From sequence record PV191315.1: a stretch of 64,000 nucleotides of DNA, one strand, 5' to 3'. Under the pieces are notes generated by a model, which was not told the DNA's origin, did not search any database, and saw nothing but the letters and a program-made list of their open reading frames with translations. Shown here piece after piece: positions 12,038 through 32,104 of the stretch; position 1 is the first letter of the stretch, and each line of letters starts with the position of its first letter. A program made the translations under genes and the position numbers. Origin of the DNA: Escherichia phage vB_EcoM-P3322.

Positions 12038-13864
12038 ATGAAAGATTTGTACCAAGATGTTTTTTCTTTTTTAGATCGCACTTCAGAAACATACACTAGA
12101 GAGAATGCAAACAAACCTTCCCACCTCGTTAACACGCATAGGGATCTCTTGGCGGGGATTTTAAGCAAACATATGGCAATGACACAGATACTGCCAAAAA
12201 ACTTGTCAGAATGGCATACAGAAGGTTTTGGACATATTCACGACTTGGATTATCTGCTCTCTCCTCTTACAAACTGTTGTCTTGTTAATTATCAAGATAT
12301 GTTAGAAAATGGTTTTAAGATCGGTGCTGCACAGATAGAAAAACCAAAATCTATTGGAGTAGCTACCACAGTGCTAACTCAAATCATCCAAGCTGTAGCA
12401 TCGAGCCAGTATGGTGGACAGACTTGTGCGCATATTGACGAGGGATTAAAACAATACGTAGAAAAAAGCTACAACAAAATCTTTAATAATCTCAGCAAAA
12501 ATTATCGTGGTCCTAATACAGAGGACTTAGAGAAAAGGGCGATGGAAGTGGTGGACAGTCTTGTTTATGACGCAATGCAAACACTTCTGTATCAAGTTAA
12601 TACCTTGATGAGTGTGAATGGTCAATCACCATTCATCACTATCAGCCTCGGCTTGGACACCTCTGTTTTTGGACGAATGATCACTAAGAACTATTTAAAG
12701 GTTCATACAGGAGGTCTTGGGAAGGATCGCGTGACCCCAGTATTCCCGAAAGTCGTGTTCTTCCTGAAAGACGGGGTGAATATGAAACCGGGTGACCCGA
12801 ATTACGATCTCAAGCAACTGGCAATGGAATGTTGTGCAGAAAGGATTTACCCTGATTTCATCTCTGTTCCACTGAACATGGAAGTCACAGGATCTTCAGA
12901 TGGCAAGGTTACAAGCATGGGTTGCAGAAGCTTCCTTTCTCACTATGCCACCGAACAAGGAGAAAAATACGATGGACGATTCAACCTTGGAGTAGTTTCT
13001 ATCAACTTACCTCTGATCGCTGCGGAAGCGAGAAGTAAAGGAGAATCTTTCACCGATCTTCTTAATAAACATATGGAGATAGCCTACGATGCTCACATGC
13101 TACGTGTAAACCGTATCAGACATACCAAAGCATCTGAAAACCCTATTCTTTTCATGGAAGGGGCTTTAGCTCGTTTAAATGCCAACGATGAAATTGGTGT
13201 TTTGTTTGAAGGTGGTTATGCTTCTATTAGTATTGGTTATGTAGGTCTTGCCGAAGCTTTGGAAATCCTTTATCCAGAAGAAAAAGATAAAAAGGAACTT
13301 GGTAAAAACATTCTGCAACATATGAAAGATGTGTGTGCTGTGTTTAAAGAACGATCTAATTTGGCGTTTAGTCTCTATGGAACTCCAGCAGAATCTTTGT
13401 GCTATAAGTTTGCAACAGCTTTAAATGAAAAATACCCAGGTTTGGTAGAAAGAGACTATCTTACTAACTCTTTTCATCAACCTGTGTGGTTGGTAACAAA
13501 CCCTTTTGAAAAATGGGATTATGAAGCAGGTTTTGCACAGATTAGTAATGGTGGTAACATAAGTTATGTCGAAACACCAAACTTAAAGAATAACTTAGAA
13601 GCTTTGGAAACTTTAGTAGACTACGCTTATGAACATATTCACTATTTTGGTATTAATCAGCCCGTGGATCAATGCTTTAAGTGTGGTTTTCATGGGGAAT
13701 TTAAGGCAACGGCTAAAGGGTTTGAGTGTCCTGATTGTGGCAACCATGAAGAAGAAACTATTTCTGTAGTTAGACGTGTATCAGGGTATCTTTCTGCCCC
13801 TAATTCACGGCCTTATAACAAAGGTAAAATGCAGGAAGTTTTGCAAAGGGAGAAACATTTTTGA
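12038..13864 (+). CDS. nrdD: anaerobic ribonucleoside-triphosphate reductase (class III)
   Basis: 608 aa; C-terminal zinc ribbon CFKCGFHGEF...CPDCGNHEE followed by glycyl-radical-type RVSGYLS; next gene is a radical-SAM activase. Confidence 0.8.
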   Translation: MKDLYQDVFSFLDRTSETYTRENANKPSHLVNTHRDLLAGILSKHMAMTQILPKNLSEWHTEGFGHIHDLDYLLSPLTNCCLVNYQDMLENGFKIGAAQIEKPKSIGVATTVLTQIIQAVASSQYGGQTCAHIDEGLKQYVEKSYNKIFNNLSKNYRGPNTEDLEKRAMEVVDSLVYDAMQTLLYQVNTLMSVNGQSPFITISLGLDTSVFGRMITKNYLKVHTGGLGKDRVTPVFPKVVFFLKDGVNMKPGDPNYDLKQLAMECCAERIYPDFISVPLNMEVTGSSDGKVTSMGCRSFLSHYATEQGEKYDGRFNLGVVSINLPLIAAEARSKGESFTDLLNKHMEIAYDAHMLRVNRIRHTKASENPILFMEGALARLNANDEIGVLFEGGYASISIGYVGLAEALEILYPEEKDKKELGKNILQHMKDVCAVFKERSNLAFSLYGTPAESLCYKFATALNEKYPGLVERDYLTNSFHQPVWLVTNPFEKWDYEAGFAQISNGGNISYVETPNLKNNLEALETLVDYAYEHIHYFGINQPVDQCFKCGFHGEFKATAKGFECPDCGNHEEETISVVRRVSGYLSAPNSRPYNKGKMQEVLQREKHF

Positions 13865-14551: not shown

Positions 14552-15157
14552 ATGCAACATAGTGTAGTAGTCAACATGCCGAATAGTGGGGATAAATCTT
14601 TTGGTGTCCCTGCTAAAAAAGTGTGGAAAGCCCATTTTCATCTTACTTTATCTAATGTTAGTTCTGAAGAGTTGATGAAAGCAGCTAAGATTATTGGTGC
14701 CAAATGCACAACAATTGATTTACATCGGGATACAAAGTCTCAACGTGATCGTATGTTAACAAAGTATCAAAGCGATCTCGACACTACTTTAATGTTGCAG
14801 TGTGTAGAAAAACTTGAGAATGCAGGTTTCAATGTTGTTCGTTACAAACTGGAACGAATGTTTAAACATGTTGCCTGTGTTCTTTTCATGGATCTAAGTA
14901 AAGAAAATTACGGAGAAGTTCACATTAAGACTTCAGCAAGTGATCCCGAAGTAGAAACAAACTTCTTCCGTATTTCTTCTAATGCTGAAGAAGTTGATTA
15001 CCGATTTTATAATGCTCGCTTATATTCCGCAGAAGATAAGTTGCGTTTCAATGAAGCGTATGATATGCTCTTGAACAGTGGGATACAGATAAAAGGCTAC
15101 CACATAGAACAAGTGGTAGTGGACAGTAATCTTAACTTAGACGCATGGTGGGCTTAA
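14552..15157 (+). CDS. hypothetical protein
   Basis: Track ORF 201 aa; SD GAGGAG; no recognisable motif. Confidence 0.55.
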   Translation: MQHSVVVNMPNSGDKSFGVPAKKVWKAHFHLTLSNVSSEELMKAAKIIGAKCTTIDLHRDTKSQRDRMLTKYQSDLDTTLMLQCVEKLENAGFNVVRYKLERMFKHVACVLFMDLSKENYGEVHIKTSASDPEVETNFFRISSNAEEVDYRFYNARLYSAEDKLRFNEAYDMLLNSGIQIKGYHIEQVVVDSNLNLDAWWA

Positions 15158-15158
15158 T

Positions 15159-15815
15159 ATGACTATTAAACATATCTCTTTTGATGTATGGAACACACTG
15201 ATCACAGCAAACTCCAATTACGCAGACATGCGAGCCTGGACTATCGCAAAATATGGAGATATTACGGAAGTGGAAGCAAGAGCAGCTTATAAAAAGATCA
15301 AAAAGGAACTGGATAATGCAGCACTTCAAGGCAAAGCCGAGTGTGCAGCATATGCTTGGGAAAGACTTGGTTCTGAACTTGGGATAACGCCTTGGAAGTC
15401 TGCAAAGCTTCGTTTCGAGTGTGAACAGTGGTTCCTTAAGTTTCCACCACACGTAGCCGTGGATCTGCCGATGTACTTGCTGTATCTTTCGGGGCGTTAT
15501 GATTTGAGTATTAAGAGCAATACCAACTTCATATCAGGGGATATCCTGCGTCGTGCTTGTAAGTTTGATAGTTGGAATTGTTTTGAGTTCACCCATTTCT
15601 CGGATGAAGCTTTACTTTGTAAACCAGATCCGCGATTCTTTGCTCGCACGCTCACGTATTCTCCGATCCCTCTGTTAGGGCACGAAGTGTTGCACGTAGG
15701 CGATAGTGAAGAATATGATGGAAAATGTGTTGACTTAGGATTTAACTTCTGTCATATTAAGAACCCTAACGACTTACTAGAGAAACTTAAAAGAGGAGAA
15801 ATTGTAAATGCGTAA
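15159..15815 (+). CDS. HAD-superfamily phosphatase-like hydrolase
   Basis: Motif I-like ISFDVWNTLI near N-terminus and motif IV-like HVGDSEEYD. Confidence 0.5.
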   Translation: MTIKHISFDVWNTLITANSNYADMRAWTIAKYGDITEVEARAAYKKIKKELDNAALQGKAECAAYAWERLGSELGITPWKSAKLRFECEQWFLKFPPHVAVDLPMYLLYLSGRYDLSIKSNTNFISGDILRRACKFDSWNCFEFTHFSDEALLCKPDPRFFARTLTYSPIPLLGHEVLHVGDSEEYDGKCVDLGFNFCHIKNPNDLLEKLKRGEIVNA

Positions 15816-16635
15816 TCAAACTCAAATTTTTGCAAATAAATTTGATGACCTGGAAACTGCTACTTTTGATATCCAAGATTATTCAAAATTGAAATTTGGT
15901 AGTAACCAAGCTGCGCGTCGTATGGGTAAAGAATTGGCACTTCAGTTTTTTGCTCAAGTGGCAATGAAACATATTGGGGAACAATTTGTTATCATTCCTT
16001 CTCCTTATAACCATGTGCATAATGCTGCAACAATGATGACAGATCATTTTATTAATTACTTTAATATGTTGCAATCACAATATGATCAAGGTCGTTCAGC
16101 AGAACTGGACATTATTCATCGTAAAGTTAGCTATATCAACGATTATGGTTTCTTGGATAAAGCTAGTCGTAAGAAACTTATTGATGGGGATACATTCTAC
16201 TGCAACAAAGAATTCTGGGGTGATAAGAAGCTTGTATTCATTGATGATGTAAATATCACTGGAACGCATGAAGACAAACTGATTGAGATCCTTGATGAAA
16301 ATCAAGTTAAAAATGATGTTTACTTCCTGTATTTTGCAAAATACGAAGGTAATCAAGCAGATACCGAAGCTAAACTGAATTTTAACTACATTAATACACC
16401 AGAAGCGTTTGTTAAAATGATTAATGAAGAACGTGATGCACAGTGTCTTGTTCGTCCTATTAAGTATCTTATGGGCCAAAATCATGAAGACTTCAAAATC
16501 ATTCTTAGCCAATTGCCACATTACTATGTAGAGCAACTTTTCTTTGGATGCTTGGGAGAAGGTTACAACCGAATTTCAAAGTATGCTGAAAACTTTGAAT
16601 TCTTGGATCGTTACACAAAACAACACATTCTGTAA
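15808..16635 (+). CDS. phosphoribosyltransferase-like protein
   Basis: PRPP-binding-loop-like KLVFIDDVNITGTHED; overlaps HAD gene by 8 nt. Confidence 0.45.
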   Translation: MRNQTQIFANKFDDLETATFDIQDYSKLKFGSNQAARRMGKELALQFFAQVAMKHIGEQFVIIPSPYNHVHNAATMMTDHFINYFNMLQSQYDQGRSAELDIIHRKVSYINDYGFLDKASRKKLIDGDTFYCNKEFWGDKKLVFIDDVNITGTHEDKLIEILDENQVKNDVYFLYFAKYEGNQADTEAKLNFNYINTPEAFVKMINEERDAQCLVRPIKYLMGQNHEDFKIILSQLPHYYVEQLFFGCLGEGYNRISKYAENFEFLDRYTKQHIL

Positions 16636-16648
16636 TAAGGAGCTAAAA

Positions 16649-17122
16649 ATGCTTAAAATTAAAACAGGTAATCTTATTGATGCCGCTAAAGCAGGTGAAG
16701 TAACTGTTATTGCTCATTGTTGCAACTGTATGTGTAATATGGGGGCAGGTATTGCCCCACAAATCAAACGAGCATTTCCTTACGCATATGCAGCAGACTT
16801 AGACACAATGGCTGGTGATCAAAGTAAACTAGGTTGTTTTAGTTTAGGGGTGCCAGACGAACAATCCGACCCTTTGGTATATAATCTATACGGGCAATAC
16901 CGTTACGGATACAATGCTAAAGGTCGTCAGTTGGACTATGATGCACTTTACGATGCACTAATAGCTATGGCTAACGATTTGCTTCTCCGTGACCAAAAAT
17001 GTAAGATCGGCTTACCTATGATTGGCGCTGGATATGCTGGAGGTAATTGGGCTATCATCCAAGTGATGATTGAAGAAACTTTAGTAAAAACAGGTCACGA
17101 TGTGACTATTTATAAACTTTAA
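16649..17122 (+). CDS. macro-domain protein (ADP-ribose binding/processing)
   Basis: Track ORF 16544..17122, start moved to ATG 16649 after AAGGAG; VIAHCCNCMCNMGAGIAPQIKRAFP aligns with the macro-domain Gly-rich loop, second loop LPMIGAGYAGG. Confidence 0.5.
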   Translation: MLKIKTGNLIDAAKAGEVTVIAHCCNCMCNMGAGIAPQIKRAFPYAYAADLDTMAGDQSKLGCFSLGVPDEQSDPLVYNLYGQYRYGYNAKGRQLDYDALYDALIAMANDLLLRDQKCKIGLPMIGAGYAGGNWAIIQVMIEETLVKTGHDVTIYKL

Positions 17123-17134
17123 GAGGAGATTAGT

Positions 17135-17356
17135 ATGGGTGTTTTTGCAGGTATTGTTGCAGTGGTAAGCTTTTTTGTTATTGCTTTTATGCTTAGTTTG
17201 ATTCCAGCTTGGTTACTGTTGCTGGCTTACAACTATGTTGCTGAAGTTATGGGTCATGCAGATATCACTGTCCCAGTAACCTTCTGGACCGTGGTTTGTG
17301 TTTCGTTTATTCTGGCTGTATTACGAGGAATCTTTTCCTCTCATTCAACAAAATAA
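17135..17356 (+). CDS. small membrane protein (2 TM)
   Basis: Track ORF 73 aa; hydrophobic helices; SD AGGAGA. Confidence 0.5.
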   Translation: MGVFAGIVAVVSFFVIAFMLSLIPAWLLLLAYNYVAEVMGHADITVPVTFWTVVCVSFILAVLRGIFSSHSTK

Positions 17357-17359
17357 GTG

Positions 17360-17387
17360 TTGACATAGTTCTTAAAAAGAGTAAGAT
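17360..17387 (+). promoter_or_regulatory. candidate sigma70-type promoter (TTGACA-N16-TAAGAT) preceded by motif AAAATAAGTG
   Basis: Consensus hexamers in the 80-nt gap before the TerC-like gene. Confidence 0.4.
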
Positions 17388-17399
17388 GTATCACATGAA

Positions 17400-17418
17400 G
17401 CGGGGAATAGTTCCCCGC
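17400..17418 (+). promoter_or_regulatory. 5' leader stem-loop GCGGGGAA-TAG-TTCCCCGC
   Basis: Perfect 8-bp GC-rich stem between promoter and RBS, no T-run after it. Confidence 0.3.
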
Positions 17419-17435
17419 AAAGAGAGGAGAAAAGA

Positions 17436-18410
17436 ATGCAACTTGGTTTCCCAATTATTGATGTAGTTGTTTTAGTTGGTATTTTAGCATTGTCTATTGG
17501 TATTGATTTCTTTGGTCACAAAGAAAATAAAGAAATTTCATTCAAATCCGCAGTTGGTTGGTCGATCTTTTGGATTGGTGTATCATTAGCTTATTATGGT
17601 TTTGTATACTTCCAACATGGTGCCGATTTTGCTAACTTGTTTTTAAGTGGATATGTGTTGGAAAAATCTTTGTCGGTAGATAACTTGGTAGTATTTGTAG
17701 CAGTATTCGCAAGTTTTGGTATTAAAAGCACACACTTGCAGCACAAGATTCTACTTTGGGGTATTGCAGGTGCGATTGTCTTCCGAGGTGTGTTTGTAGC
17801 AGTAGGCACTTACTTGTTAAGTTTGGGCTGGTATGTTAATATCTTCTTCGGTGCGGTCATCCTTTTCTGTGCAGCTAAAATGGTATTTGCTGGAGATAAT
17901 GACGCAGAAGTTGATTACTCTAAACACTGGGCTACCCGTATTGTTCGTAAACTGTTCCCTGTATCTAATAAAATGGATGGGGAGAAGTTCTTCACAATCG
18001 AAAATGGTGTTCGTGTAGCAACTCCAGCTTTGGTTTGCGTATTCGTGATGGAAATGGTGGATGTAATCTTTGCAGTAGATTCGGTTCCAGCGGTGATCGC
18101 AGTGACACAAGAACCCCTGCTTGTATTCTCTTCGATGTTATGTGCAATCTTAGGTCTACGTGCTCTGTTCTTTGTTCTTAGTGTCGCACTGAAGTATCTG
18201 GTTCACTTGGAGAAAGCAGTTATTGTGGTTCTGGTGTTTGTAGGCGTTAAACTGATGTATCACCCGTTTGCAGAAACATTGCATGAGAAAATGAGTTTCC
18301 TGCCAGCACATATTGATCCAACTATTAGTATGTATATCGTGCTTGGTACTTTGGCCCTTGGTGTTATTGCAAGCTTTATCTTCCCTGAAAAAGAAGAAGC
18401 TACTGTTTAA
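17436..18410 (+). CDS. TerC-family integral membrane protein
   Basis: 324 aa polytopic membrane protein; SLSVDNLVVFVAVF motif and paired acidic/His TM segments fit TerC/Alx pattern. Confidence 0.55.
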   Translation: MQLGFPIIDVVVLVGILALSIGIDFFGHKENKEISFKSAVGWSIFWIGVSLAYYGFVYFQHGADFANLFLSGYVLEKSLSVDNLVVFVAVFASFGIKSTHLQHKILLWGIAGAIVFRGVFVAVGTYLLSLGWYVNIFFGAVILFCAAKMVFAGDNDAEVDYSKHWATRIVRKLFPVSNKMDGEKFFTIENGVRVATPALVCVFVMEMVDVIFAVDSVPAVIAVTQEPLLVFSSMLCAILGLRALFFVLSVALKYLVHLEKAVIVVLVFVGVKLMYHPFAETLHEKMSFLPAHIDPTISMYIVLGTLALGVIASFIFPEKEEATV

Positions 18411-18416
18411 TAAATG

Positions 18417-18440
18417 AGCCTCCTTCGGGAGGCTATTTTA
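18417..18440 (+). terminator. rho-independent terminator
   Basis: AGCCTCC-TTCG-GGAGGCT hairpin followed by ATTTTA. Confidence 0.55.
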
Positions 18441-18452
18441 TAGGAGAGACTT

Positions 18453-18803
18453 ATGAGTAATTTTGATGAAATTCAAGAACTTGTTTGGGATTTATCTGGT
18501 GATGTGGATTACATTTCAGATTATCTTTCAAAAGTTTACCCTGGGGTAAGCGTTATGATTGTGACCAAAGATCCAATTAATTTGCCTCCTAACGTGGTAG
18601 CTTGTTGTGGAAGTGGTTCAGGAGAAGTAGAGCCTGTATCTCGTTGGGAATTAACTAAAGCTGTTTCAAAACGAAATGGTGAAGTTTTGAATATTGATAT
18701 CGAACAAATATGGACTTCTCCAGCAGCCAAATGGAATGATCCTAATGGTTGGGATTTGTTCTTCTGGGATAATGAAACTGATGATGAGGTATTTTTAAAA
18801 TGA
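18453..18803 (+). CDS. hypothetical protein
   Basis: Track ORF 116 aa. Confidence 0.5.
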   Translation: MSNFDEIQELVWDLSGDVDYISDYLSKVYPGVSVMIVTKDPINLPPNVVACCGSGSGEVEPVSRWELTKAVSKRNGEVLNIDIEQIWTSPAAKWNDPNGWDLFFWDNETDDEVFLK

Positions 18804-19045
18804 AATACTTGTTGGTTGTGTTTGAAAATATTTGTTTTGCAATAGGGTTGTTTGTTGTAATTTTTGTATTGACAAGCGTAATCAACGGCAGTAAAGTGAG
18901 TTTATACCGAGATGGAGAGCAACTCTATTGCTTCTCTGGAGATTTCAAACACAGATGTATTAATAGTCAAAATGAGGAAAGCAAATATGAAAAAACTAGC
19001 CCTGATTTTAATTGGTTGTATCTTTTTAACAGCTTGCGAGGATGA
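18800..19045 (+). CDS. small protein with N-terminal TM helix; overlaps next gene in another frame
   Basis: Track ORF 81 aa; ATGA overlap with upstream gene; TM FAIGLFVVIFVLTSVI; reality uncertain because of 59-nt overlap. Confidence 0.3.
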   Translation: MKYLLVVFENICFAIGLFVVIFVLTSVINGSKVSLYRDGEQLYCFSGDFKHRCINSQNEESKYEKTSPDFNWLYLFNSLRG

Positions 19046-19424
19046 AACAAATCCTGCACAATACCAACAACCTCCTCAACAATACACTCAACAAGGATCT
19101 GACGGAGATACAACTATTATCAACAATGGTGGCGGTTCTAGTAGTAGTGGTGTTGGTGAGTTTGCTACAGGTATGTTGTTAGGGCATATGATGAGTGGCA
19201 GTAGTAATCGTAGCAGTGGTGATTATAACGATAACAGAACGATTATTAATAAGCATTATAATACACCTAAACCGAAAACTAATTTTTATGGTAAGCCTAA
19301 ACAAGAGATAAAAACTTATGAAAAGCCGAGACAAACTTTTAAAACAAATAGTAGCTATACAACTCGTAAATCTTACAATAGCCCTTTAAGTAAAAAGAGT
19401 TCATCTCGTAGCAAGCGACGTTAA
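18987..19424 (+). CDS. lipoprotein, low-complexity Q/S/N-rich with basic C-terminus
   Basis: Track ORF 18912..19424; start moved to ATG 18987 after GAGGAAAG; lipobox LTAC in MKKLALILIGCIFLTACEDE. Confidence 0.5.
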   Translation: MKKLALILIGCIFLTACEDETNPAQYQQPPQQYTQQGSDGDTTIINNGGGSSSSGVGEFATGMLLGHMMSGSSNRSSGDYNDNRTIINKHYNTPKPKTNFYGKPKQEIKTYEKPRQTFKTNSSYTTRKSYNSPLSKKSSSRSKRR

Positions 19425-19438
19425 TAAGGAGAAAAACA

Positions 19439-20032
19439 ATGACAATTTCTATTCGTACTTCCATCGTAGGTGTTAAAAGGTTGCCTAATGCTTTGCAAAT
19501 CACACGCGCTTTGAGGGATACATTCTCTGCTGTGGACGAGCATAAGATGCTTGATAATCTTTCAAATTGGCCCTATTTCCATTATTTTAAAAATGAAGAT
19601 GACGAGTTTATAGACGCTGTTTCTTATGGTTATGATTTCGGTAAGGAGGTTTCTGCTGAAGAATTTGTAGCTATGGTGTTCCCAAACGGTTTGCCTACTC
19701 GCAGTAAACGTAAAAAAGGACCAAAAAACAAGAAACGTGCTACTAATAAAGCTACCATTTTCTTTACTGATGGCACACAATATACGATTAAAGATTTTGA
19801 AGAGGTATCTTATACAGCAGGTGGGAATCTTTCTTTCTACACCATCAAAAAACAAAACTCTACGTTCAGCCATGTTTCTAACATGATTGAAATGTTAGTA
19901 GAAGATATTGAAAGCGTGGCTGTGTTAGGTATGCATAAAAGCTTTTTAATTACAAATATTTCAGATTTCAGTGCAAGTTTATCTGGCCCTGATTTTGAAG
20001 CCACGACCACGCATTTCGCTTTTAAGGTGTAA
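19439..20032 (+). CDS. hypothetical protein
   Basis: Track ORF 197 aa; SD AAGGAGAAAAAC. Confidence 0.55.
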   Translation: MTISIRTSIVGVKRLPNALQITRALRDTFSAVDEHKMLDNLSNWPYFHYFKNEDDEFIDAVSYGYDFGKEVSAEEFVAMVFPNGLPTRSKRKKGPKNKKRATNKATIFFTDGTQYTIKDFEEVSYTAGGNLSFYTIKKQNSTFSHVSNMIEMLVEDIESVAVLGMHKSFLITNISDFSASLSGPDFEATTTHFAFKV

Positions 20033-20035
20033 GTT

Positions 20036-20626
20036 ATGCATACCGAGAGAGACTTGCAACTCTTGTGGTGGGAAGTGATGCAGGAAATAAAAGAAGATTT
20101 TCCTGCTTACTACAACATGTTACGTGAAGCAGGATATAAAGCTTGTGTTAGAAACAAAGTGAATAACTCTTTCGGTTGGTGCAACTACCGAGATAAAATT
20201 GTTGTTGTAAATTGGCACTTGCATAAGAACTCCACAAGAGATATGATCGTGGATACAATGAAGCACGAAATTGCTCATGCTATTGATGGTTGTATGGGTA
20301 AGTTTAGTAGGCACGGTGCTCATTGGCAAAAACTGGCAGCAGAATTAGGGGCTAATCCTAAAGCCACTTCCAAAGAGCCGTTGAACCACGAATATAAATA
20401 TGTTCTTGTTCTGGTAGATAGGTTTGCGACAAGATGTGTTAGAGGTTATAATCGTAAACCTAATCGCATGTACCCAGGTAAGCAACCTAATATGTGGTTG
20501 AAATCAGATAAAGAAGGGACCGAAGGAAAATTATGGTTGTATAAATGGGACGATTGGGTTAAAGTAGCTAAAGAGTACGGTGTTTCACCATATATAAGAG
20601 ATGCAGAAGAGGAGAATGAAGAATGA
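20036..20626 (+). CDS. SprT-like zinc metalloprotease-domain protein
   Basis: HExxH in TMKHEIAHAI with downstream HGAHW and upstream GWCNYRDKIVVVNWHL, matching SprT-like layout. Confidence 0.5.
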   Translation: MHTERDLQLLWWEVMQEIKEDFPAYYNMLREAGYKACVRNKVNNSFGWCNYRDKIVVVNWHLHKNSTRDMIVDTMKHEIAHAIDGCMGKFSRHGAHWQKLAAELGANPKATSKEPLNHEYKYVLVLVDRFATRCVRGYNRKPNRMYPGKQPNMWLKSDKEGTEGKLWLYKWDDWVKVAKEYGVSPYIRDAEEENEE

Positions 20627-21735
20627 CAAGTCCATTTTTAAAAGCAGCTACTGGTGGTCAGAAGAAGCCTGAAATGAGCGTATTTGCTGCAACAACAGAT
20701 GCAAGTAAATCTGTATTCGCTCCAAGCGTGTTAGATGCCAGTCCTGTTTATGCACCAGCGGCACCGCAAGAAGTTCCAGTTTTGCCTTCTATGACCCGAC
20801 AAGAGATCGAAGAGATTGGGGCAGAGGCAGGAACAACCTTGCGTTCCTTGAATGCCGAGGTATTAAAACATCAACGTAGTAATCAAGGCGATCAGATGAG
20901 TGAACGACTCACAGCTTTGATTAAACAGGCAAAACAACTTGATCCAAACTCTATTAAACAAAGCAAGGGTATTACTAAACTCATTAAAAAAGTTATGGGT
21001 ATGAAAGAAGATCTGTTTGGGGAGTTTGATAATGTTAATAACCGTATTGAAGAGTTGGTAAAGAACCTTCAAATGGATATTCGCAAAGAAGAAGATTCCT
21101 TGGTATATCTTGAAAAGCTACATCAAGCTATTGGACAATATGCTGCAAGTTTGAACCGAGATATGCAGCTTCTAACAGCAACCTATGAAAAAGAAGAACA
21201 AGCTTTGGCTGCTCTTCCAGAAGATGCAGTAGAACAGCGACAAGTGATCCGAGATACTTTGGATCTTCTGGAGATTCGTATTGCAGATTTAAAAGCATTG
21301 CGCCTACTGTGTGTCCAAATGGGACCGCGTGTACAAGGTATGCAAAAAGTTTCTGCAAGCTTAATGCGATCTGCGCGTAACATAGTAAATAATGTTATTC
21401 CTGCTTACTCTGCTAACTTCTCAATGTATATCGAGAGCTTACGTCAAATGAAAGCAGCAGAGACGCAGAATAACGTTCTTGATGAATTTAACCTGGCAAT
21501 TAAACTGGGTAGCGATCTTGCCACACAGAATCAGATCGAAGCAGCAGCACTGGCTAACCGTCAAGTGTTGGATATTGAAACTCTGCGTCACGATCAGGAA
21601 AACTTGGTTAAGATGTTGGAAGAAACTAACCGCATCAATACGGAAGCCCGTGCTGCTCGTGTTGATTATATTAATGAAGTTCAATCTCTGGAAGACGGGA
21701 TGGTAGCTGCTGTGAAACGAGGGCTTGGTAAATGA
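20623..21735 (+). CDS. TelA-like (toxic anion resistance family) coiled-coil protein, tentative
   Basis: 370 aa helical, Gln/Leu-rich with heptad-like stretches; call by size, composition and Ter-gene context only. Confidence 0.35.
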   Translation: MTSPFLKAATGGQKKPEMSVFAATTDASKSVFAPSVLDASPVYAPAAPQEVPVLPSMTRQEIEEIGAEAGTTLRSLNAEVLKHQRSNQGDQMSERLTALIKQAKQLDPNSIKQSKGITKLIKKVMGMKEDLFGEFDNVNNRIEELVKNLQMDIRKEEDSLVYLEKLHQAIGQYAASLNRDMQLLTATYEKEEQALAALPEDAVEQRQVIRDTLDLLEIRIADLKALRLLCVQMGPRVQGMQKVSASLMRSARNIVNNVIPAYSANFSMYIESLRQMKAAETQNNVLDEFNLAIKLGSDLATQNQIEAAALANRQVLDIETLRHDQENLVKMLEETNRINTEARAARVDYINEVQSLEDGMVAAVKRGLGK

Positions 21736-21929
21736 GAATCCGTATCTATATAATTGATGAAGACATTGGTGTCCGTTATGATGACGAAAAACGATTCGCA
21801 CCGATGGGAGGTATATATCCCCCAAGTGTTCTAGCAGTTTGTCGTGATTGTTATATTTATGAAGGTTGTCGTAACTTCCGTAAATTCGAACTCCTTGCAG
21901 ATATTGACTTCAATGAGGAGGAGGAGTAA
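21732..21929 (+). CDS. hypothetical protein
   Basis: Track ORF 65 aa; ATGA overlap. Confidence 0.45.
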   Translation: MRIRIYIIDEDIGVRYDDEKRFAPMGGIYPPSVLAVCRDCYIYEGCRNFRKFELLADIDFNEEEE

Positions 21930-22099
21930 TGAAAATATTACGAGTGAATATTGAAACTGCTTGGTGTGGATGCAATGAGGTTGTGGATATCGAAATTGAA
22001 GATGATATGTCTCAAGAGGATATAGAAGATCTTGCGCACGAAACCTTTCAGGATTATTGTAATTACGGGTTCCATATTTTAGAGGAGGAAGAAGATGTT
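21929..22099 (+). CDS. small acidic hypothetical protein (56 aa)
   Basis: Not in track; TAATG overlap upstream, SD GAGGAGGAG, stop overlaps next start; MKILRVNIETAWCGCNEVVDIEIEDD... Confidence 0.4.
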
Positions 22100-22298
22100 T
22101 AACTACGATAACGATCCTAATATTATCCAGTTAACCCGACAAGAACTGATCACAATCATTGAAGATGCTTTTATTGATGGCTGGAATACACAAGATAATG
22201 ACTGGGGTGGACCCGAAGCTTTTCTGGAACATCATAAAACTTATGGAGACTCTTGTGAAACCACTGTAGCTCTTGATAATCTGAAGGAGGGTTTGTAA
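22095..22298 (+). CDS. hypothetical protein
   Basis: Track ORF 67 aa; SD GAGGAGG. Confidence 0.5.
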   Translation: MFNYDNDPNIIQLTRQELITIIEDAFIDGWNTQDNDWGGPEAFLEHHKTYGDSCETTVALDNLKEGL

Positions 22299-22861
22299 TG
22301 GGTTGTTTTAGCTTTTTGTGCAAAGAATCGGGCAAAGCTGCCCTTTCTACTTCTTTCGACGGATCACCTTGCTACCTCTTTCTTTTGAAGGACGGTGTTG
22401 TTATTGAAGAGATGTATGGCAACTATGATAGTTATGGTTGTGTTTTCTCTGGAAAGGAGGATGAAAACGGCGTTCGTGAACGGTTCGAATGGGCTATGGA
22501 TTGGGGTAAGGTTTGTGATTTGATGCATTCCTCAAATCCAAGGGACGGTATCGCTATGGTGCTGGAAGAGTACTTTACAGGTGAAATCCCTACAGAACAA
22601 TCTGACGGAGATCCTAACCAAGGTTGGGGTGATGGTGAAGAAGATCCAGATTGTTTTTTCAGCACAGAAAAGAATAAGTTTAAACGTGTTGACAACCCTT
22701 ATCACAAAGTGCATAATACTCTCATTGAAACAGAAGATGACAAGATGGAAATTGAAGAAGATGATCCTCTTGTAACACTTCCTATAAGTGAGTTACAAAA
22801 GATCACTAAGGAAGCTTACGATTTGGGCTTCAAAATTGGTAGAGGAGGTATGCGTGTTTAG
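22298..22861 (+). CDS. hypothetical protein
   Basis: Track ORF 187 aa. Confidence 0.5.
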   Translation: MGCFSFLCKESGKAALSTSFDGSPCYLFLLKDGVVIEEMYGNYDSYGCVFSGKEDENGVRERFEWAMDWGKVCDLMHSSNPRDGIAMVLEEYFTGEIPTEQSDGDPNQGWGDGEEDPDCFFSTEKNKFKRVDNPYHKVHNTLIETEDDKMEIEEDDPLVTLPISELQKITKEAYDLGFKIGRGGMRV

Positions 22862-23132
22862 ATTCAATATTCAAGAAGAAAAAAGTCAGGATTTACCTAT
22901 TGCTTTCGAAGATCTTGACGTAGGGGCCACATTCATGTATTATGATGCCTATGAAGACGCAGGGTTGGATACCTACCGTAACTTGGTGTTCATTAAAAAT
23001 TCCACAAACAGTGCGATTTGTATTAATGGATCACTAGCACAACGAGGCTATACTCATTGCATCCCACCAGATACAAATATGGTGGAAGTAGATTTAGAAG
23101 TTACCAATATTACACTTAAGAAGGAGAAATAA
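22854..23132 (+). CDS. small protein, paralog A (of 24154..24423)
   Basis: Track ORF 22788..23132; start moved to GTG 22854 after AGAGGAGG; shares DLDVG(A/D)TF and EV(D/E)L.VT.ITLK with paralog B. Confidence 0.45.
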   Translation: MFRFNIQEEKSQDLPIAFEDLDVGATFMYYDAYEDAGLDTYRNLVFIKNSTNSAICINGSLAQRGYTHCIPPDTNMVEVDLEVTNITLKKEK

Positions 23133-23133
23133 T

Positions 23134-23928
23134 ATGTCCGAGAAAATCAGCCTGAAAAAACGTCAAGAAAACCTTGCTTTCTCTCTGAAAAAGAATAAGA
23201 ACCTGAACGAAGGTAAGATTGTTCTTCGTGTAGCATGTGCTCTAGATATTTCTGGTAGTATGCATGGTCTATATTCTAGTGGGGTAGTGAGTGATTTTGT
23301 AGGTAAACTGCTTCCTTTTGGTATGCTGTTCGACGATAATCAACAAATTGATATGTGGGCCTTCAATACGAGTTCCCAAGAGCTTACTCCAGCAACAGCA
23401 GATGTTTACGATGACTATGTTGGTAAATGTATGCGTAATGTTCGTATCGGAGGTGGAACAAATTACGCCCCTGTAATGGCGGATATCTACGATGAGTATT
23501 TTGGCACTGTTACTAAATATATTACCACTAAACAAGTGGTACAAGAGGAGGCTCCAAAGAAAGGTTTCTTTAATCGTCTACTTGGTAAAACTGAAACAGT
23601 ATCTGTAGAGCGTGAAAAGGTCGTAGCTGTATCTGAACCAGGTGCTGACGTTACCCCTGGTGTTGTATTCTTCCAAACGGATGGTGAGAATGGTGATCCT
23701 AGTGCTGTTCGTCGTCTTATCGAAGAGAATAAGAATAAACCTATTTATTGGTTCATGGTTGGCGTTGGTAATGAGAAGTTTGGCTTCCTGAAAGAACTGG
23801 CAAATGCTTATGATAATGTTGGTTTTATTGGTATTAAAGATTTAGACTTGACAGATTCAGAGCTTTATGACAAACTCTTATCTGAAGAGTTCGGAGAGTG
23901 GGTTGTTAAAGTAGGTGCTAAAAAATGA
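23134..23928 (+). CDS. von Willebrand factor A domain protein, TerY-like
   Basis: MIDAS-type LDISGSMHG after hydrophobic strand VLRVACA; N-terminus EKISLKK echoes TerD N-terminal motif. Confidence 0.5.
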   Translation: MSEKISLKKRQENLAFSLKKNKNLNEGKIVLRVACALDISGSMHGLYSSGVVSDFVGKLLPFGMLFDDNQQIDMWAFNTSSQELTPATADVYDDYVGKCMRNVRIGGGTNYAPVMADIYDEYFGTVTKYITTKQVVQEEAPKKGFFNRLLGKTETVSVEREKVVAVSEPGADVTPGVVFFQTDGENGDPSAVRRLIEENKNKPIYWFMVGVGNEKFGFLKELANAYDNVGFIGIKDLDLTDSELYDKLLSEEFGEWVVKVGAKK

Positions 23929-24173
23929 TCGACGAGCTTGCCTCTCAAGTCATAGAAAATTATTGGCGCGAGAGAGAAGCTTTCATTATGCGCAGTCTCA
24001 AAGAGTATTTCATTGGGACTGTGCGAATGGAAGATATTGTAAGTAGAGTAGAGATTCATGTATGGCCTGATTATGAAGAATGGGTTGACAAAGAAAATGA
24101 AAATGCTATAATTCTTCGTATATACAAACCGGAGATAACATTAGGAGGAAGAAGTGTTAAACTTCGAAATTGA
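23925..24173 (+). CDS. hypothetical protein
   Basis: Track ORF 82 aa; ATGA overlap. Confidence 0.45.
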   Translation: MIDELASQVIENYWREREAFIMRSLKEYFIGTVRMEDIVSRVEIHVWPDYEEWVDKENENAIILRIYKPEITLGGRSVKLRN

Positions 24174-24423
24174 TGAGCAAAAAGTAAATAAACGATGCCT
24201 TACCATTAAAGATTTGGATGTAGGAGATACTTTCGTCTATGAAAATGCATTTGACGAAAATGGTTTAGACCTTAGTGAAATCATTGTTTATTTAAAAGTA
24301 GATGATGGGGAAAACGATTATTCTGCTGTAGAACTAAACCATCATGCACAATTAGTATCAATCCAAAACACATCTAAGCTTTTGGAAGTAGAATTGACTG
24401 TAACTGGTATTACACTTAAATAA
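24154..24423 (+). CDS. small protein, paralog B (of 22854..23132)
   Basis: Track ORF 89 aa; GTG start after AGGAGG; paralog motifs as above. Confidence 0.45.
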   Translation: MLNFEIDEQKVNKRCLTIKDLDVGDTFVYENAFDENGLDLSEIIVYLKVDDGENDYSAVELNHHAQLVSIQNTSKLLEVELTVTGITLK

Positions 24424-24438
24424 TAGAGGAGACAAAAG

Positions 24439-25041
24439 ATGACTGATAAAATTTCCCTGAAAAAAGGCTCTAGCGAAAAAATTTCCCTGAAGAAAGTTGC
24501 TCCGGCTCTGAAAGAACTGCGCCTGGAATTCTCTTGGAAATCTGATTCTAAACTGGATCTGGATGTAAGTGCACTGGTTTGTCGTCATAATGCCGCTGGC
24601 AATCCTGAAATGTTGTCTGCACGTCATCTGGTTTGCTATGCTAACAAGTTTGATCCTGAACGTTCTACCTTCGCTGGTGACGATGTTCGTGATGGAACTG
24701 GTAGCATGGAGCAGATTGATATTACTCTGGCTAAAATCTCTCCTGATGCACAAGAGATTGCCTTTGTTCTGACCATTGATGATGATACAGGTCTGAAACG
24801 TTTTGGTCATGCTTCTGAAGGTATGCTTAAAATCTTCGACTCCGAGCGCAATGTGGAAATTCTGGATTTTGACTTCCTGGCTCCTGAAGTAGCTGGCAAC
24901 ACAATCTGCCACGTGGCTTCCTTGGTTCGTGAAGATGGGGAATGGAAGCTGAAAGCATATGGTGTAGGTAAAGCTGGTCTGGATATTTGTGATGTGGTGA
25001 TGGCCTTCGGTGGTAAAAAAGAATGGTATGAATGTCCATAA
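24439..25041 (+). CDS. TerD-domain protein
   Basis: N-terminal KISLKKG..EKISLKK, central Ca-binding-type AGDDVRDGTGS, C-terminal EWKLKAYGVGKAGL all fit TerD; strong host-like codon bias. Confidence 0.65.
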   Translation: MTDKISLKKGSSEKISLKKVAPALKELRLEFSWKSDSKLDLDVSALVCRHNAAGNPEMLSARHLVCYANKFDPERSTFAGDDVRDGTGSMEQIDITLAKISPDAQEIAFVLTIDDDTGLKRFGHASEGMLKIFDSERNVEILDFDFLAPEVAGNTICHVASLVREDGEWKLKAYGVGKAGLDICDVVMAFGGKKEWYECP

Positions 25042-25140: not shown

Positions 25141-25662
25141 TTGCTGATAAAAAACTTTGTAACAGTTGCGTTACTATCCTTAACTGCTTTTACATTTACA
25201 CCTGTTGTGGCGAAAGCCGAAGCTGCAAACGTAAAAACCGCTAAAGTAGTTCACAAATGTACAAAGCAATATAATGATAAAATTCTATTAGCTTGTGCAA
25301 TTTACGCAGAAGGTCGCGGTCTGGGTAAAAAAGGAATGAATGCCGTTGGGAATGTGGTAATCAACAGAAGAAATGATACATACTTCCCTAACACAGTCAG
25401 AGGAGTCTTGTTCCAGAAAGGGCAATTCTCATATGCGAAAACTTTTAACGTAACAGAGAAAGATAAGTGGCAGGAAGCAAAAGCAATAGCGGAGCGTTTA
25501 CTTTATTTAGAGAAACATTTTCCTGAATTGCGGTCTGTTTTAGATGTTACTAAAGGTGCTCTATACTTCAAGAAACGGAATATAAGAACACACTGGGAAC
25601 GTGATATGCGTCTTGTTTATCGAGATAAAGTGCATGGTTTCTATCTACCAAAGGGGAGTTAA
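25141..25662 (+). CDS. SleB-like cell wall hydrolase (putative endolysin) with N-terminal signal peptide
   Basis: TTG start after AAAGGAGG; signal sequence LIKNFVTVALLSLTAFTFTPVVAKA; core LLACAIYAEGRGLGKKGMNAVGNVVINRRN typical of SleB-type hydrolases. Confidence 0.55.
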   Translation: MLIKNFVTVALLSLTAFTFTPVVAKAEAANVKTAKVVHKCTKQYNDKILLACAIYAEGRGLGKKGMNAVGNVVINRRNDTYFPNTVRGVLFQKGQFSYAKTFNVTEKDKWQEAKAIAERLLYLEKHFPELRSVLDVTKGALYFKKRNIRTHWERDMRLVYRDKVHGFYLPKGS

Positions 25663-31672: not shown

Positions 31673-32104
31673 ATGCGTATGACAATCGATCTGAATGCAA
31701 AAGTTAAAGCTGCTGGTGCTCTGGGTGCTGGTGTTATTAAACACAAACAAGCGTTGGCATTTGCCATCCCACATATGATTGTTGAGGATCATCCTGAAGA
31801 GTTTGCTGTAAAAGTTGTTGAGAACAATGTCTCTGTTATTGAACATCTTCCAACTGGACGTTCTTACCGTGTTGTTTCTTCTAAAGGTTTCCGTTTCGAT
31901 GTAAGCCCTTCTTTCACAAAAGGTGCTGGTCGTAGTAAAGTGGGTATTCTTTCTTACAAATATTATATCGATAAAGTTGCAGATGGTGTCGCATTCTGTC
32001 GTGTAAGTGAAGGTAAAGTAGATATCATCTTTAAAAATACCAAAAACATGGTTATTTCTGACGATGGTAAAGTTGACCTCACTATTGAGTTCGCTAACAA
32101 CTAA
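31673..32104 (+). CDS. hypothetical protein, expression-optimised (143 aa)
   Basis: SD AGGAGAAG; heavy CTG/GGT/GCT/CGT codon usage like TerD and SSB genes; strongest promoter in window. Confidence 0.6.
   Translation: MRMTIDLNAKVKAAGALGAGVIKHKQALAFAIPHMIVEDHPEEFAVKVVENNVSVIEHLPTGRSYRVVSSKGFRFDVSPSFTKGAGRSKVGILSYKYYIDKVADGVAFCRVSEGKVDIIFKNTKNMVISDDGKVDLTIEFANN

Follow-up and report, generated by a model that had tools for sequence, protein, structure and literature searches.

Linked Ter genes and a two-enzyme nucleotide cassette in an Escherichia phage of the phAPEC8 group

Escherichia phage vB_EcoM-P3322 (sequence record PV191315.1), a phage of the phAPEC8 group that is virulent on E. coli, carries its own linked copies of Ter genes, which in bacteria are the ‘tellurite-resistance’ genes of membrane stress, and a two-enzyme nucleotide cassette. 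We analysed a window of 64,000 nucleotides (i.e. the whole stretch of DNA under study), which is of Phapecoctavirus (phAPEC8-type) and ∼99% identical to published phages. Within it, positions 15159–25041 constitute, with a probability of about 0.9, a phage Ter system of the type described by the Aravind group. The full reading, in which this system also serves superinfection exclusion or envelope protection, is tentative and we place it a little short of even odds; its functional part is a hypothesis from the literature. Genes of three kinds are present at the locus: (i) a HAD–PRTase_3 cassette; (ii) a membrane/metal module of TerC, TelA, a vWA-TerF-like protein and one abundant TerD, together with lineage-specific envelope proteins; and (iii) unrelated interleaved accessory genes (i.e. 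an AdfM-type macrodomain gene, a SprT-like protease gene and orf201 just upstream).

Ter clusters of this kind are not new, contrary to what the preliminary description of this DNA implied: GenBank records of relatives already label the genes, and the cluster is described in the literature. The families follow Anantharaman et al. 2012 and Iyer et al. 2021. The Aravind group (2021) described Ter systems, PRTase and HAD enzymes included, in jumbo phages and in a number of smaller tailed ones. Systems with these two enzymes are covered in PMC7824862, together with the superinfection-exclusion hypothesis; the same idea was raised for phage ZCKP1 (PMC6141743), and further earlier accounts of phage Ter genes are available (PMC8386662 and PMC9796965). 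The PhiPsa374 authors considered tellurite resistance unlikely from partial ter sets of such kind.

The seven open reading frames initially proposed as Ter-type genes are all present at their coordinates on the + strand, as are all other features given below, and each of the seven has a Shine-Dalgarno sequence. Five of the family calls (PRTase_3, TerC/Alx, TelA, vWA-TerF-like and TerD) are backed by strong profile matches. The other two are weak in Pfam, the macrodomain being marginal and the HAD protein below the cutoff, yet both are secured by other evidence: PDB, PHROG and PADLOC matches for the macrodomain, and conserved motifs and sub-threshold NCBIfam matches for HAD. Six of the seven belong to Ter-locus families; the macrodomain does not.

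The cassette lies directly after nrdD–nrdG. Its first gene (15159–15815) encodes a HAD-IA-type hydrolase, identified by motifs I–IV, a match to phrog_14393 ‘hydrolase’ (3e-117) and its position before PRTase_3. The Pfam ‘Hydrolase’ score is 21.2 bits (E 4e-4), under the cutoff of 26.4, and the NCBIfam matches (DREG-2 at 2.4e-8, YjjG and HAD-IA-v1) are all sub-threshold. Motifs I (with the nucleophile Asp), II, III and IV are nevertheless kept across 21 diverse homologs. Motif I reads D-x-W-N-T, with Trp in place of Asp+2, and because this general acid/base is missing, simple phosphatase chemistry is not assured. The second gene (15808–16635) begins within the HAD gene, sharing its last 8 nt, and encodes a PRTase_3 protein (ComF-like type I phosphoribosyltransferase) that matches PF15610 over its full length (E 2e-41). 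Its PRPP loop is intact (VFIDDVNITGTH), D146, D147, T151, G152 and T153 are invariant in 16 homologs, and the AF2 model has a pLDDT of 92.5; the best PDB folds are those of HG(X)PRT (E 1e-6), ComF from H. pylori and PyrR. In every one of the 41 loci that encode the PRTase, HAD is the gene directly before it. The two genes are an autonomous, translationally coupled pair and one inseparable unit wherever present. Linkage of the pair to Ter genes is limited to a subset of lineages, but among these the gene order varies.

The next gene (16649–17122) encodes a macrodomain protein of the T4 Tk.4/AdfM family, 38% identical (E 5e-20) to the Tk.4 ortholog of Tequatrovirus HY01. It matches Pfam Macro at 23.1 bits (E 7e-5; cutoff 22), SCO6735 in the PDB at 9e-13 (also BT1257, TARG1 and DarG), phrog_335 at 3e-54 and the PADLOC DarG model at 4e-10. 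Homologs are found in 2,980 phage records, compared with ∼150 for the Ter genes, and they adjoin HAD–PRTase only within the phage's own subfamily. We therefore rejected the macrodomain as a Ter component and regard it as a stand-alone phage gene. T4 tk.4 is adfM, experimentally an anti-DarTG2 factor, and by sequence the present gene is probably an anti-DarTG2 counter-defence gene beside the Ter set. A distant homolog of orf201 shares an overlap with an Acb1 gene, and a NADAR gene is close by.

TerC (17436–18410) is a TerC/Alx-family integral membrane protein with ∼9 TM helices and a predicted metal-ion transporter. It matches Pfam TerC (E 1e-38) and the curated NCBIfam family TIGR03718 (Alx/TerC; 3e-95, 319 bits, above the cutoff of 246). 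At 95% identity to the TerC of phi92, a phage of another genus, it is the most conserved gene of the comparison, and it has no DNA match in E. coli genomes. A sigma70-type promoter-like site (17360–17387; TTGACA-16-TAAGAT, 10/12) lies 49–76 nt upstream, with a counterpart at the same offset in phi92 and in the relatives L011, L012 and L013. Directly 3' of the gene is an intrinsic-terminator-like hairpin (18417–18434; AGCCTCC-TTCG-GGAGGCT, then a T-rich stretch); compensatory changes preserve the hairpin in phi92, L012 and L013. The upstream region contains no riboswitch, the Mn type included. Lineage-specific envelope companions accompany this module, namely one protein with two TM helices and another with one, a lipoprotein and two small paralogous proteins. 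The two-TM protein (17135–17356; hydropathy scan) has homologs at the same position in phi92, L011, L012 and L013 and stays with the cluster across the subfamily. The protein with one N-terminal TM helix (18800–19045) and the predicted lipoprotein (18987–19424; lipobox LTAC, low-complexity tail) are also kept in the subfamily, and a signal peptide is annotated for the lipoprotein homolog phi92 gp180.

Between the lipoprotein gene and TelA are a conserved 197-aa protein (19439–20032) that has no Pfam match and has homologs in phi92, L011, L012 and L013, and a SprT-like Zn-metalloprotease (20036–20626; HEIAH, Pfam SprT-like 3.5e-9). The latter gene overlaps the TelA start by 4 nt and abuts TelA in L012 and L013; it is missing from phi92 and from locus L003, and is an accessory gene. 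TelA (20623–21735), of the toxic anion resistance/KlaA type, matches Pfam TelA (E 3e-33, residues 59–361) and phrog_5890 (1.5e-139) and is 79% identical to phi92 gp178; sequence search found no relative of solved structure.

A conserved 187-aa protein (22298–22861), 76% identical to phi92 gp175 and missing from L011 and L012, precedes the vWA unit; it has no family match in Pfam, NCBIfam or PADLOC-type profile searches. The unit has a sigma70-type promoter-like site (22689–22717; TTGACA-17-CATAAT, 11/12); phi92 and L013 have this site unchanged and at the very same offset (−165 to −137). Its first gene, orf92 (22854–23132; 92 aa), ends 1 nt before the start of vWA (23134–23928). The vWA protein had been called vWA/TerY-like; vWA holds, and PF10138 (vWA-TerF-like, E 1.6e-37) makes it TerF-type rather than TerY. 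Its MIDAS motif (DISGS ... GGT ... TDG) is intact, with the residues kept in 12 of 12 phage homologs, and its CAI ranks eighth among 84 ORFs.

Upstream of TerD is the sole perfect sigma70 consensus in the window (24085–24112; TTGACA-16-TATAAT, 12/12, with an upstream TG), a promoter-like site 42 nt from orf89 and 327 nt from TerD. The same 12/12 site occurs in L013, and in phi92 and L011 10/12 sites lie just before TerD, at −65 and −68. The 89-aa orf89 (24154–24423), which ends 15 nt before TerD, is a paralog of orf92 (pairwise score 123 against 26 ± 4.6 for shuffles, z = 21). It occurs only in the Phapecoctavirus-type lineage, being present in L013 and missing from phi92; the orf92/orf89 family as a whole is confined to phages of this kind and shows no fusions. 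TerD (24439–25041) is a single-domain protein matching Pfam TerD (E 3e-28) and Klebsiella TerD (PDB 2KXT, 1.5e-15). It was described as among the most codon-optimised genes, and indeed ranks first of the 84 ORFs (CAI 0.526 on E. coli usage, with Sharp-Li w values). It is 100% identical across Phapecoctavirus records whose DNA differs by ∼4%, which we count as a sign of selection.

TerC, vWA and TerD thus each appear to have their own sigma70-type promoter, with conserved counterparts among the four relatives (phi92, L011, L012 and L013), and are predicted to form separate early units, not one operon. These sites, and the co-directional arrangement of the genes after nrdDG, make the suggested early/middle expression plausible. 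Separate transcription units rather than one operon also count against the full reading given at the outset.

Co-location of these families exceeds chance, as had been supposed. Among 50,697 phage records, TerD occurs in 148 and PRTase_3 in 156, mostly in the same genera. Synteny is kept across Phapecoctavirus and Justusliebigvirus, and the six Ter-type genes are linked in phi92; some intervening genes were gained or lost between genera. Distant phage contigs have other orders: TerC-x-TerD-x-vWA-HAD-PRT in three, TelA-vWA...HAD-PRT-TerD in two and TerC-vWA-TerD-TelA-HAD-PRT in one. Two Bacteroidetes MAGs link Ter-type families in further orders. Overall, ∼40% of independent phage lineages and both MAGs have TerD, vWA or TerC no more than a few kb from HAD–PRTase; in CcrColossus, Gurke and XaC1 the PRTase–TerD distance is 28–165 kb. 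Proximity that persists while order is rearranged suggests a functional link rather than an inherited order.

We infer envelope protection or superinfection exclusion as the most likely role. Shortly after infection, TerC, orf92-vWA and orf89-TerD would each be transcribed by host RNA polymerase from a strong sigma70-type promoter of their own. The products might form a complex at the inner membrane, an arrangement also supposed for bacterial Ter proteins, and alter both the ion balance (Ca2+/Mn2+) and the envelope of the infected cell. Such a cell could then withstand what comes later, above all superinfecting phages that inject their DNA, and colicins of the pore-forming type. The PRTase may join a base to PRPP, and HAD may convert the nucleotide so formed into a small, nucleoside-like molecule acting with or on the membrane Ter complex.

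The locus may instead unite two unrelated neighbours, a possibility we consider improbable but credible: HAD–PRTase_3 would be a self-sufficient unit of nucleotide or nucleoside metabolism that serves salvage, manipulates pools or yields a small-molecule product, sharing only a common accessory-gene region with the Ter membrane proteins. The preliminary description had named unlinked genes in relatives as evidence against it, and for the cassette this is in part what is seen. In rhizobia, on Rhizobium plasmid pRL10 among others, the pair is isolated, with Ter genes absent within 10 kb. Several jumbo phages likewise have the pair with no Ter genes close to it, and in T4-like ones it adjoins genes for RNA ligase, 2H-SAK and CCA-adding enzyme instead; the cassette therefore has no strict need for Ter proteins. 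Its place behind nrdD–nrdG and the promoter-like site between it and TerC fit such independence. Against this stand the lineages and MAGs that keep the pair near TerD, vWA or TerC in shuffled orders, and the largely shared genera of PRTase_3 and TerD. That there is no system at all, only independent morons held together by tight genome packing and common subfamily ancestry, is very improbable. Neighbours are close by default in the fully co-directional 12–26 kb block, with gaps of −74 to +99 nt, and the separate promoters and variable intervening genes agree with this; however, the same rare families (each in ∼0.3% of phage records) reunite in unrelated lineages in different orders, and their association is already known from cellular Ter loci.

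Two other explanations accept a membrane module and differ in its purpose. A counter-defence role, which we regard as unlikely, would have it keep the inner membrane energised against pore-forming or depolarising abortive-infection effectors of the host, not against rival phages. Bacterial ter operons are cited as guarding against pore-forming colicins; the neighbours are of counter-defence type (the macrodomain gene right after the cassette, and orf201), expression signals are early and strong, and several envelope proteins occur at the locus. However, the argument is one of analogy, PADLOC and anti-defence models have no match to the Ter proteins, and the absence of TerB and the degenerate TerD site weigh on it as on the preferred explanation. 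Decidedly unlikely, in our judgement, is metal homeostasis, whereby TerC/Alx would export or redistribute Mn2+, Ca2+ or Zn2+ while TerD and vWA buffer or sense divalent cations, tuning metal supply for phage enzymes or periplasmic/lysis proteins. The above-cutoff match of TerC to the Alx/TerC ‘metal homeostasis membrane protein’ subfamily, its conservation and own promoter–terminator unit, the intact MIDAS site and recent work on Mn2+ export, metalation and zinc resistance by TerC-family proteins (PMC10197570, PMC12096827 and PMC12054061) all point this way. It leaves TelA and the cassette unexplained, and the missing Mn riboswitch and degenerate TerD metal site speak against it.

No TerB was found by profile search among the ORFs of 14.3–25.7 kb (the short orf81 and orf57 excepted), nor were ATP-grasp or TIM-barrel lyase partners found at the locus. 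Bacterial TerB is believed to connect the biosynthetic module with the complex of TerD and TerC, and its absence is counted against the explanation we prefer. The ‘Ca-binding-type core’ attributed to TerD is only partial: where the Klebsiella signature is GDNRTGEGDGDDE, the phage protein reads GDD-VRDGTGSME, and in contrast to Klebsiella and canonical phage and bacterial TerDs it has lost the DDE triad of the Ca2+ signature. The resistance proposed for the infected cell would mirror the Phi and PacB phenotypes, which are those of bacterial ter operons.

All seven open reading frames (ORFs) of the preliminary description lie exactly where it placed them, on the plus strand and each with a Shine–Dalgarno sequence. 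Five of its family calls have strong matches in Pfam, i.e. PRTase_3 (15808–16635; PF15610, full length, 2e-41), TerC (17436–18410; 1e-38), TelA (20623–21735; 3e-33), the vWA protein (23134–23928; vWA-TerF-like, PF10138, 1.6e-37) and TerD (24439–25041; 3e-28 over residues 5–179). TerC also scores 319 bits against a cutoff of 246 for the curated NCBIfam Alx/TerC subfamily TIGR03718, and TerD matches the Klebsiella TerD in the PDB at 1.5e-15. The macro gene (16649–17122) is marginal in Pfam (23.1 bits, gathering score 22) and is secured by its matches to solved macrodomains, phrog_335 and the PADLOC DarG model. The HAD gene (15159–15815) falls under the Pfam ‘Hydrolase’ threshold (21.2 vs 26.4) and is secured by the nucleophile Asp and motifs II–IV, which are kept in 21 homologs, together with sub-threshold NCBIfam HAD-IA matches. 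The description of TerD as codon-optimised is also borne out by its E. coli CAI of 0.526, which ranks first among 84 ORFs; with the Sharp–Li weights used, these values are good for ranking only. The next-highest values belong to plus-strand ORFs at 31673–32104 (0.499) and 37183–38070 (0.489).

Of the features of a Ter system in the sense of Anantharaman, Iyer and Aravind, the locus contains TerD, TerC, the sub-membrane components TelA and vWA, and a PRTase–HAD module of the nucleoside-biosynthesis type, and these families also show neighbourhood association. TerB, which in such systems links the membrane complex with biosynthesis, gave no hit in a scan of 20 ORFs from the 14.3–25.7-kb interval, all of those there except the short orf81 (18800–19045) and orf57 (21929–22102). 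We regard the locus as a phage Ter system with a probability of about 0.9.

Such a cluster is already known, because public genomes almost identical to this one label the same genes and the idea itself has been published. These 9.9 kb share 99% identity with Dompiswa phage TSP7_1 and with Escherichia phage tuntematon, and they match 129 phage records, mostly of Phapecoctavirus and Justusliebigvirus (Stephanstirmvirinae). The SKA64 record carries the labels ‘TerD family protein’, ‘vWA-TerF-like’, ‘TelA’, ‘TerC family’, ‘Macro_Poa1p_like’, ‘phosphoribosyltransferase’ and ‘REG-2-like HAD hydrolase’, and comparable labels appear in the records of EF1-1 and the Justusliebigvirus phi92. Three records with other host names, ‘Campylobacter phage B15/C3’ and ‘Acinetobacter phage vB_AbaM_ABPW7’ (MG065650, MG065656 and OP562383), share ∼96% identity with the E. 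coli phages discussed here, and their host labels are probably wrong. Ter genes were previously noted in a phi92-like phage of the Intesti phage cocktail, as well as in Klebsiella phages phiKp34 and ZCKP1 and Pseudomonas phage PhiPsa374 (PMC8386662, PMC6141743, PMC9796965). Iyer, Anantharaman, Krishnan, Burroughs & Aravind (2021; PMC7824862) proposed a role against superinfecting phages for phage Ter systems, with Acinetobacter phage ME3, Caulobacter jumbo phages and some related tailed phages of smaller size among their examples. Our literature search found no phage ter gene that had been the subject of functional or experimental work. The additions of the present analysis are modest: (i) the macro gene is assigned to the AdfM family and removed from the Ter set; (ii) the HAD–PRTase_3 gene pair (hereafter the cassette) is autonomous; (iii) its HAD is atypical; (iv) the layout of transcription units is conserved; and (v) the metal site of TerD is degenerate.

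In an alignment of the vWA protein with 11 phage homologs, the MIDAS site is intact in all 12 sequences. For TerD, the Klebsiella segment GDNRTGEGDGDDE aligns to GDD-VRDGTGSME of the phage protein. The latter departs from the 13-residue Ca2+ signature GDN(R/L)TG(E/A)GDGDDE, with SME in place of the DDE that other phage and bacterial TerDs of the compared loci keep. It retains the DLD motif and has an extra acidic DDD at the canonical H[DE]A position. Judged from these residues, Ca2+ binding by the phage TerD is uncertain. The protein is nevertheless under very strong constraint: it is 100% identical across genomes that are here ∼4% divergent in DNA. TerC is 95% identical between the window and phi92 (L003:16124–17101), with 49–80% identity for the neighbouring genes. 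This excess similarity suggests either recent inter-genus recombination or exceptional constraint. Alx/TerC genes are classically under riboswitch control; a Mn2+ riboswitch upstream of the phage TerC was ruled out, with no Rfam hit at E ≤ 1 across 11–27 kb. The 20 ORFs searched for TerB likewise include no ATP-grasp or TIM-barrel lyase gene.

Several smaller genes lie among these. The plus-strand orf92 (22854–23132) and orf89 (24154–24423) are paralogs (alignment z = 21) situated directly upstream of vWA and TerD, respectively, and their family (15 clusters) is confined to these phages. A Rosetta-stone search for their fusion to TerD or vWA gave a negative result, as no member of the 15 clusters is longer than ∼93 aa and none is fused. 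Bacterial TerF is a TerD–vWA fusion, and orf92 and orf89 might bridge the split TerF halves. A SprT-like Zn-metalloprotease gene (HEIAH; 20036–20626, +) overlaps TelA at ATGA, a translational coupling; it is lineage-specific, abutting TelA in comparison loci L012 and L013 and missing in phi92. Three envelope-type genes accompany the cluster and are kept across the subfamily; their products are two TM proteins, one with two TM helices and the other with one, and a lipoprotein that has an LTAC lipobox.

From nrdD (12038) to the SleB-type endolysin gene (25141), all genes run in the same direction, spaced by −74 to +99 nt. The overlap is 8 nt between HAD and PRTase_3 and 4 nt between the SprT-like gene and TelA, while the end of orf92 lies 1 nt from vWA and that of orf89 lies 15 nt from TerD. 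The region is organized into several transcription units and is not one operon. TerC has its own sigma70-like promoter (17360–17387, +) and terminator hairpin (18417–18434, +). Strong sigma70-like promoter sites on the plus strand precede orf92–vWA (22689; TTGACA-17-CATAAT) and orf89–TerD (24085; TTGACA-16-TATAAT with an upstream TG, the only perfect one in the window). The offsets of these promoters are conserved in phi92, L011, L012 and L013, and the TerC hairpin is kept via compensatory substitutions in phi92, L012 and L013. From the conserved offsets and hairpin, early transcription by host RNA polymerase can reasonably be inferred. Window-wide, there are 10 near-consensus sigma70 sites (≥11/12; at 2688, 5091, 22689, 24085, 28583, 31611, 40124, 48485, 53154 and 62239) compared with 2.8 ± 1.7 in shuffles, and they probably mark early or middle units read by the host enzyme. 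At the two ends of the region, nrdD (12038–13864) is one uninterrupted 608-aa ORF, annotated in phi92 as split or spliced with two pieces joined (L003:9218–11296), and the SleB-type cell-wall hydrolase (25141–25662, +) has a TTG start and an N-terminal hydrophobic signal-like segment. The hydrolase gene lies directly 3′ of TerD and 5′ of four glycosyltransferase genes (from 26364).

In PRTase_3 the PRPP loop is kept, with DDVxITGTH invariant, and its confident AF2 model (pLDDT 92.5) has the type I PRTase fold, extended by helices at the C terminus. Foldseek gives a probability of 1.0 to HGPRTs, ComF and PyrR at TM scores of 0.3–0.5. The nearest solved folds (6-oxopurine PRTases, H. pylori ComF and PyrR) share 11–17% identity, too distant for base specificity to be read from structure, and that attempt was abandoned. 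The HAD protein keeps the nucleophile Asp and motifs II (SNTNF), III (KP) and IV (HVGD...D) in 21 homologs. Its motif I reads D-V-W-N-T and departs from DxDx[TV], in which Asp+2 is the acid/base: this position is Trp in 20 of 21 aligned homologs (the window protein with those of L003–L027) and Tyr in one. Because of this replacement, the name ‘phosphatase’ is tentative. The protein belongs to a distinct D-x-W-N-T subfamily, whose motif is atypical for a phosphatase and hints at altered chemistry.

The macro gene was counted in the Ter set by the preliminary description, and we remove it, since it belongs to the AdfM family, is widespread and adjoins the cassette only within the subfamily. Homologs are spread over 2,980 phage records, compared with 156 for PRTase_3 and 148 for TerD, and they adjoin HAD–PRTase only in Stephanstirmvirinae. 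The protein has 38% identity (E 5e-20) with the Tequatrovirus HY01 ortholog of Tk.4, whose gene sits between vs and tk.3–tk, and both have the motifs AHxCNC...MGxGxA, YNLYxQY and IGxGxAGGxW. Among solved macrodomains it matches SCO6735 (9e-13), then BT1257, TARG1 and DarG (5m31, 2.9e-6); it also matches phrog_335 (3e-54) and the PADLOC DarG model (4e-10). T4 tk.4 has been shown to correspond to adfM, which encodes a macrodomain factor against DarTG2 (bioRxiv 10.1101/2025.11.20.689424), and the chimallivirus AdfM (gp104) removes the ADP-ribose added by DarT2 from DNA (PMC13309987). By homology, the window protein is probably also an anti-DarTG2 factor, and on the parsimonious reading its gene is a stand-alone counter-defence gene that does not belong to a pathway for a Ter metabolite. 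Public records label it ‘phosphatase’ or ‘Poa1p-like’.

At the upstream side of the cassette, orf201 (14552–15157, +) abuts the HAD gene and is probably a further accessory or counter-defence gene. It matches PADLOC ‘AbiEi’ models (3.6e-13), but its structural model shows a pair of ferredoxin-like lobes for which no structural neighbour was convincing. In a distant phage contig, the orf201 homolog and an Acb1 gene overlap, with a NADAR gene 4 kb away. Two HxT-like motifs noticed on visual inspection had raised the possibility of a 2H phosphoesterase feeding a macro/HAD pathway, a candidate rejected as the second of them is invariably H-x-K and the model lacks a 2H fold. Membership in the cassette was likewise rejected: distant homologs lie apart from HAD–PRTase, and phi92 lacks orf201.

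Linkage between the cassette and the Ter genes was assessed in 41 PRTase_3-encoding loci from annotated phages, contigs found via homologs, IMG/VR viral contigs and GTDB species genomes (comparison loci are given L numbers). HAD lies directly upstream of PRTase_3 in 41/41. Of the 19 phage loci outside Stephanstirmvirinae, eight have TerD inside the ±10-kb flanks of the PRTase, seven have vWA-TerF there, five TerC and four TelA. Ter-family linkage occurs in phi92, L006, L007, L015, L019, L020, L022, L023, L027 and two Bacteroidetes MAGs (L041 and L042), with two or three TerD genes beside the pair in the MAGs and TerC in one of them. Gene orders are diverse, i.e. TerC-x-TerD-x-vWA-HAD-PRT (L006, L007 and L023), TelA-vWA...HAD-PRT-TerD (L015 and L019) and TerC-vWA-TerD-TelA-HAD-PRT (L022). 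TelA assignments considered for ∼400-aa and ∼310–390-aa unknowns in the compact L006 and L007 operons were dropped because neither Pfam nor phmmer gave a significant match, and for the 311-aa protein of L006 there were only faint hits of coiled-coil type. PnuC and NadR neighbours, which had raised a link to NAD salvage, occur in two loci only and were counted as coincidence.

Ter families are absent within 10 kb in L004, L008/9, L016–18, L021 and L024–26. The association is not universal. The cassette stands alone, for example, as a two-gene unit on Rhizobium johnstonii pRL10 (L043, record 107669–109142), and it is also found without nearby Ter genes in many Rhizobium, Sinorhizobium and Ensifer genomes (L029–L040; 38–41% identity). 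Its occurrence in Rhizobium phages and rhizobia suggests phage–host exchange. In T4-like jumbo phages it adjoins genes for RNA ligase, 2H-SAK and CCA-adding enzyme, a neighbourhood that is RNA-repair-like and not Ter. In L008:9345–13168, L009 and L004:14333–17527, an RNA ligase gene is followed by the cassette and then by the genes of a vWA-type protein (DUF2828/DUF7788) and of a 2H-SAK phosphoesterase. The PRTase–TerD distance is 28–165 kb in CcrColossus, Gurke and XaC1. Given its solitary occurrence in rhizobia and T4-like jumbo phages and this separation from TerD, the cassette is autonomous and facultatively Ter-linked. The same facts would suit a cassette that is functionally independent and simply adjacent to the Ter genes. 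Proximity is retained despite the shuffled orders, however, which supports a functional tie; we consider independence unlikely, and mere co-location of all the genes highly improbable.

As to function, we give slightly less than an even chance to envelope or superinfection protection involving a cassette molecule. TerC, TelA, vWA and TerD would act together at the inner membrane early in infection, where they would alter ion or envelope state and so protect against superinfecting phages or pore-formers. The cassette would make a nucleoside-like molecule acting with these four proteins. Protection of this kind is the hypothesis already in print and parallels the Phi (phage-inhibition) and PacB (colicin-resistance) phenotypes of bacterial ter. 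Other readings place the benefit elsewhere. Membrane protection by the Ter module against abortive-infection effectors, in a neighbourhood that also holds the predicted anti-DarTG2 gene, is also unlikely, if a shade less so than cassette independence. A more elaborate counter-defence version, in place of a superinfection barrier, with an early and strongly expressed TerD/vWA/TelA/TerC complex that would guard the membrane against pore-forming or depolarising effectors of this kind and colicins under the control of a new nucleoside-like molecule from HAD–PRTase_3, is more doubtful. Metal homeostasis through TerC, which does fall in the Alx-type subfamily, seems improbable.

The action of Ter, TelA and TerD proteins has been puzzling for about three decades despite their spread, including in pathogens. 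To our knowledge, E. coli K-12 lacks a ter operon of its own, so phages that plate on K-12 and carry a compact Ter set would offer a clean genetic handle. The HAD–PRTase_3 pair provides a defined two-enzyme target for the long-predicted ‘nucleoside-like metabolite’. As this opportunity follows from published annotations and the 2021 analysis, our results represent confirmation and some dissection, not discovery.

Compared with the enterobacterial terZABCDEF and telAB (kilA-telAB) determinants of tellurite and colicin resistance and phage inhibition (R478, O157:H7 islands and RK2), the phage cluster likewise has TerC, a TerD fold, a TerF-type vWA and TelA. By contrast, it has a single TerD and no TerA/Z/E series, its TerF is split into separate genes, TerB is missing among the 20 ORFs scanned at 14.3–25.7 kb, its promoters are separate and similarity is low. 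The cluster is not of the terZABCDEF type. The idea that the phage had recently captured alx or ter genes from its host was rejected because TerD is distant from the Klebsiella protein (E 1.5e-15) and blastn finds no DNA-level TerC match in 5,426 E. coli genomes. The lytic myoviruses phiKp34, ZCKP1 and PhiPsa374 have the same terC, terD, terF-vWA and telA core; their reports do not mention a HAD–PRTase_3 cassette, and phiKp34 has two TerD genes. Of the known systems, those of Iyer et al. come closest. They also combine PRTase and HAD (for signal biosynthesis) with TerD, TerC, a TerF-type vWA and TelA in large virulent tailed phages, and homologs of the window PRTase occur in CcrColossus and Brevundimonas jumbo phages. 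Relative to those systems, the present one resides in a ∼150-kb genome that is not jumbo, places TerC, vWA and TerD in separate promoter units, and has one TerD with a degenerate Ca signature, in the company of envelope proteins particular to the lineage and a pair of small paralogs.
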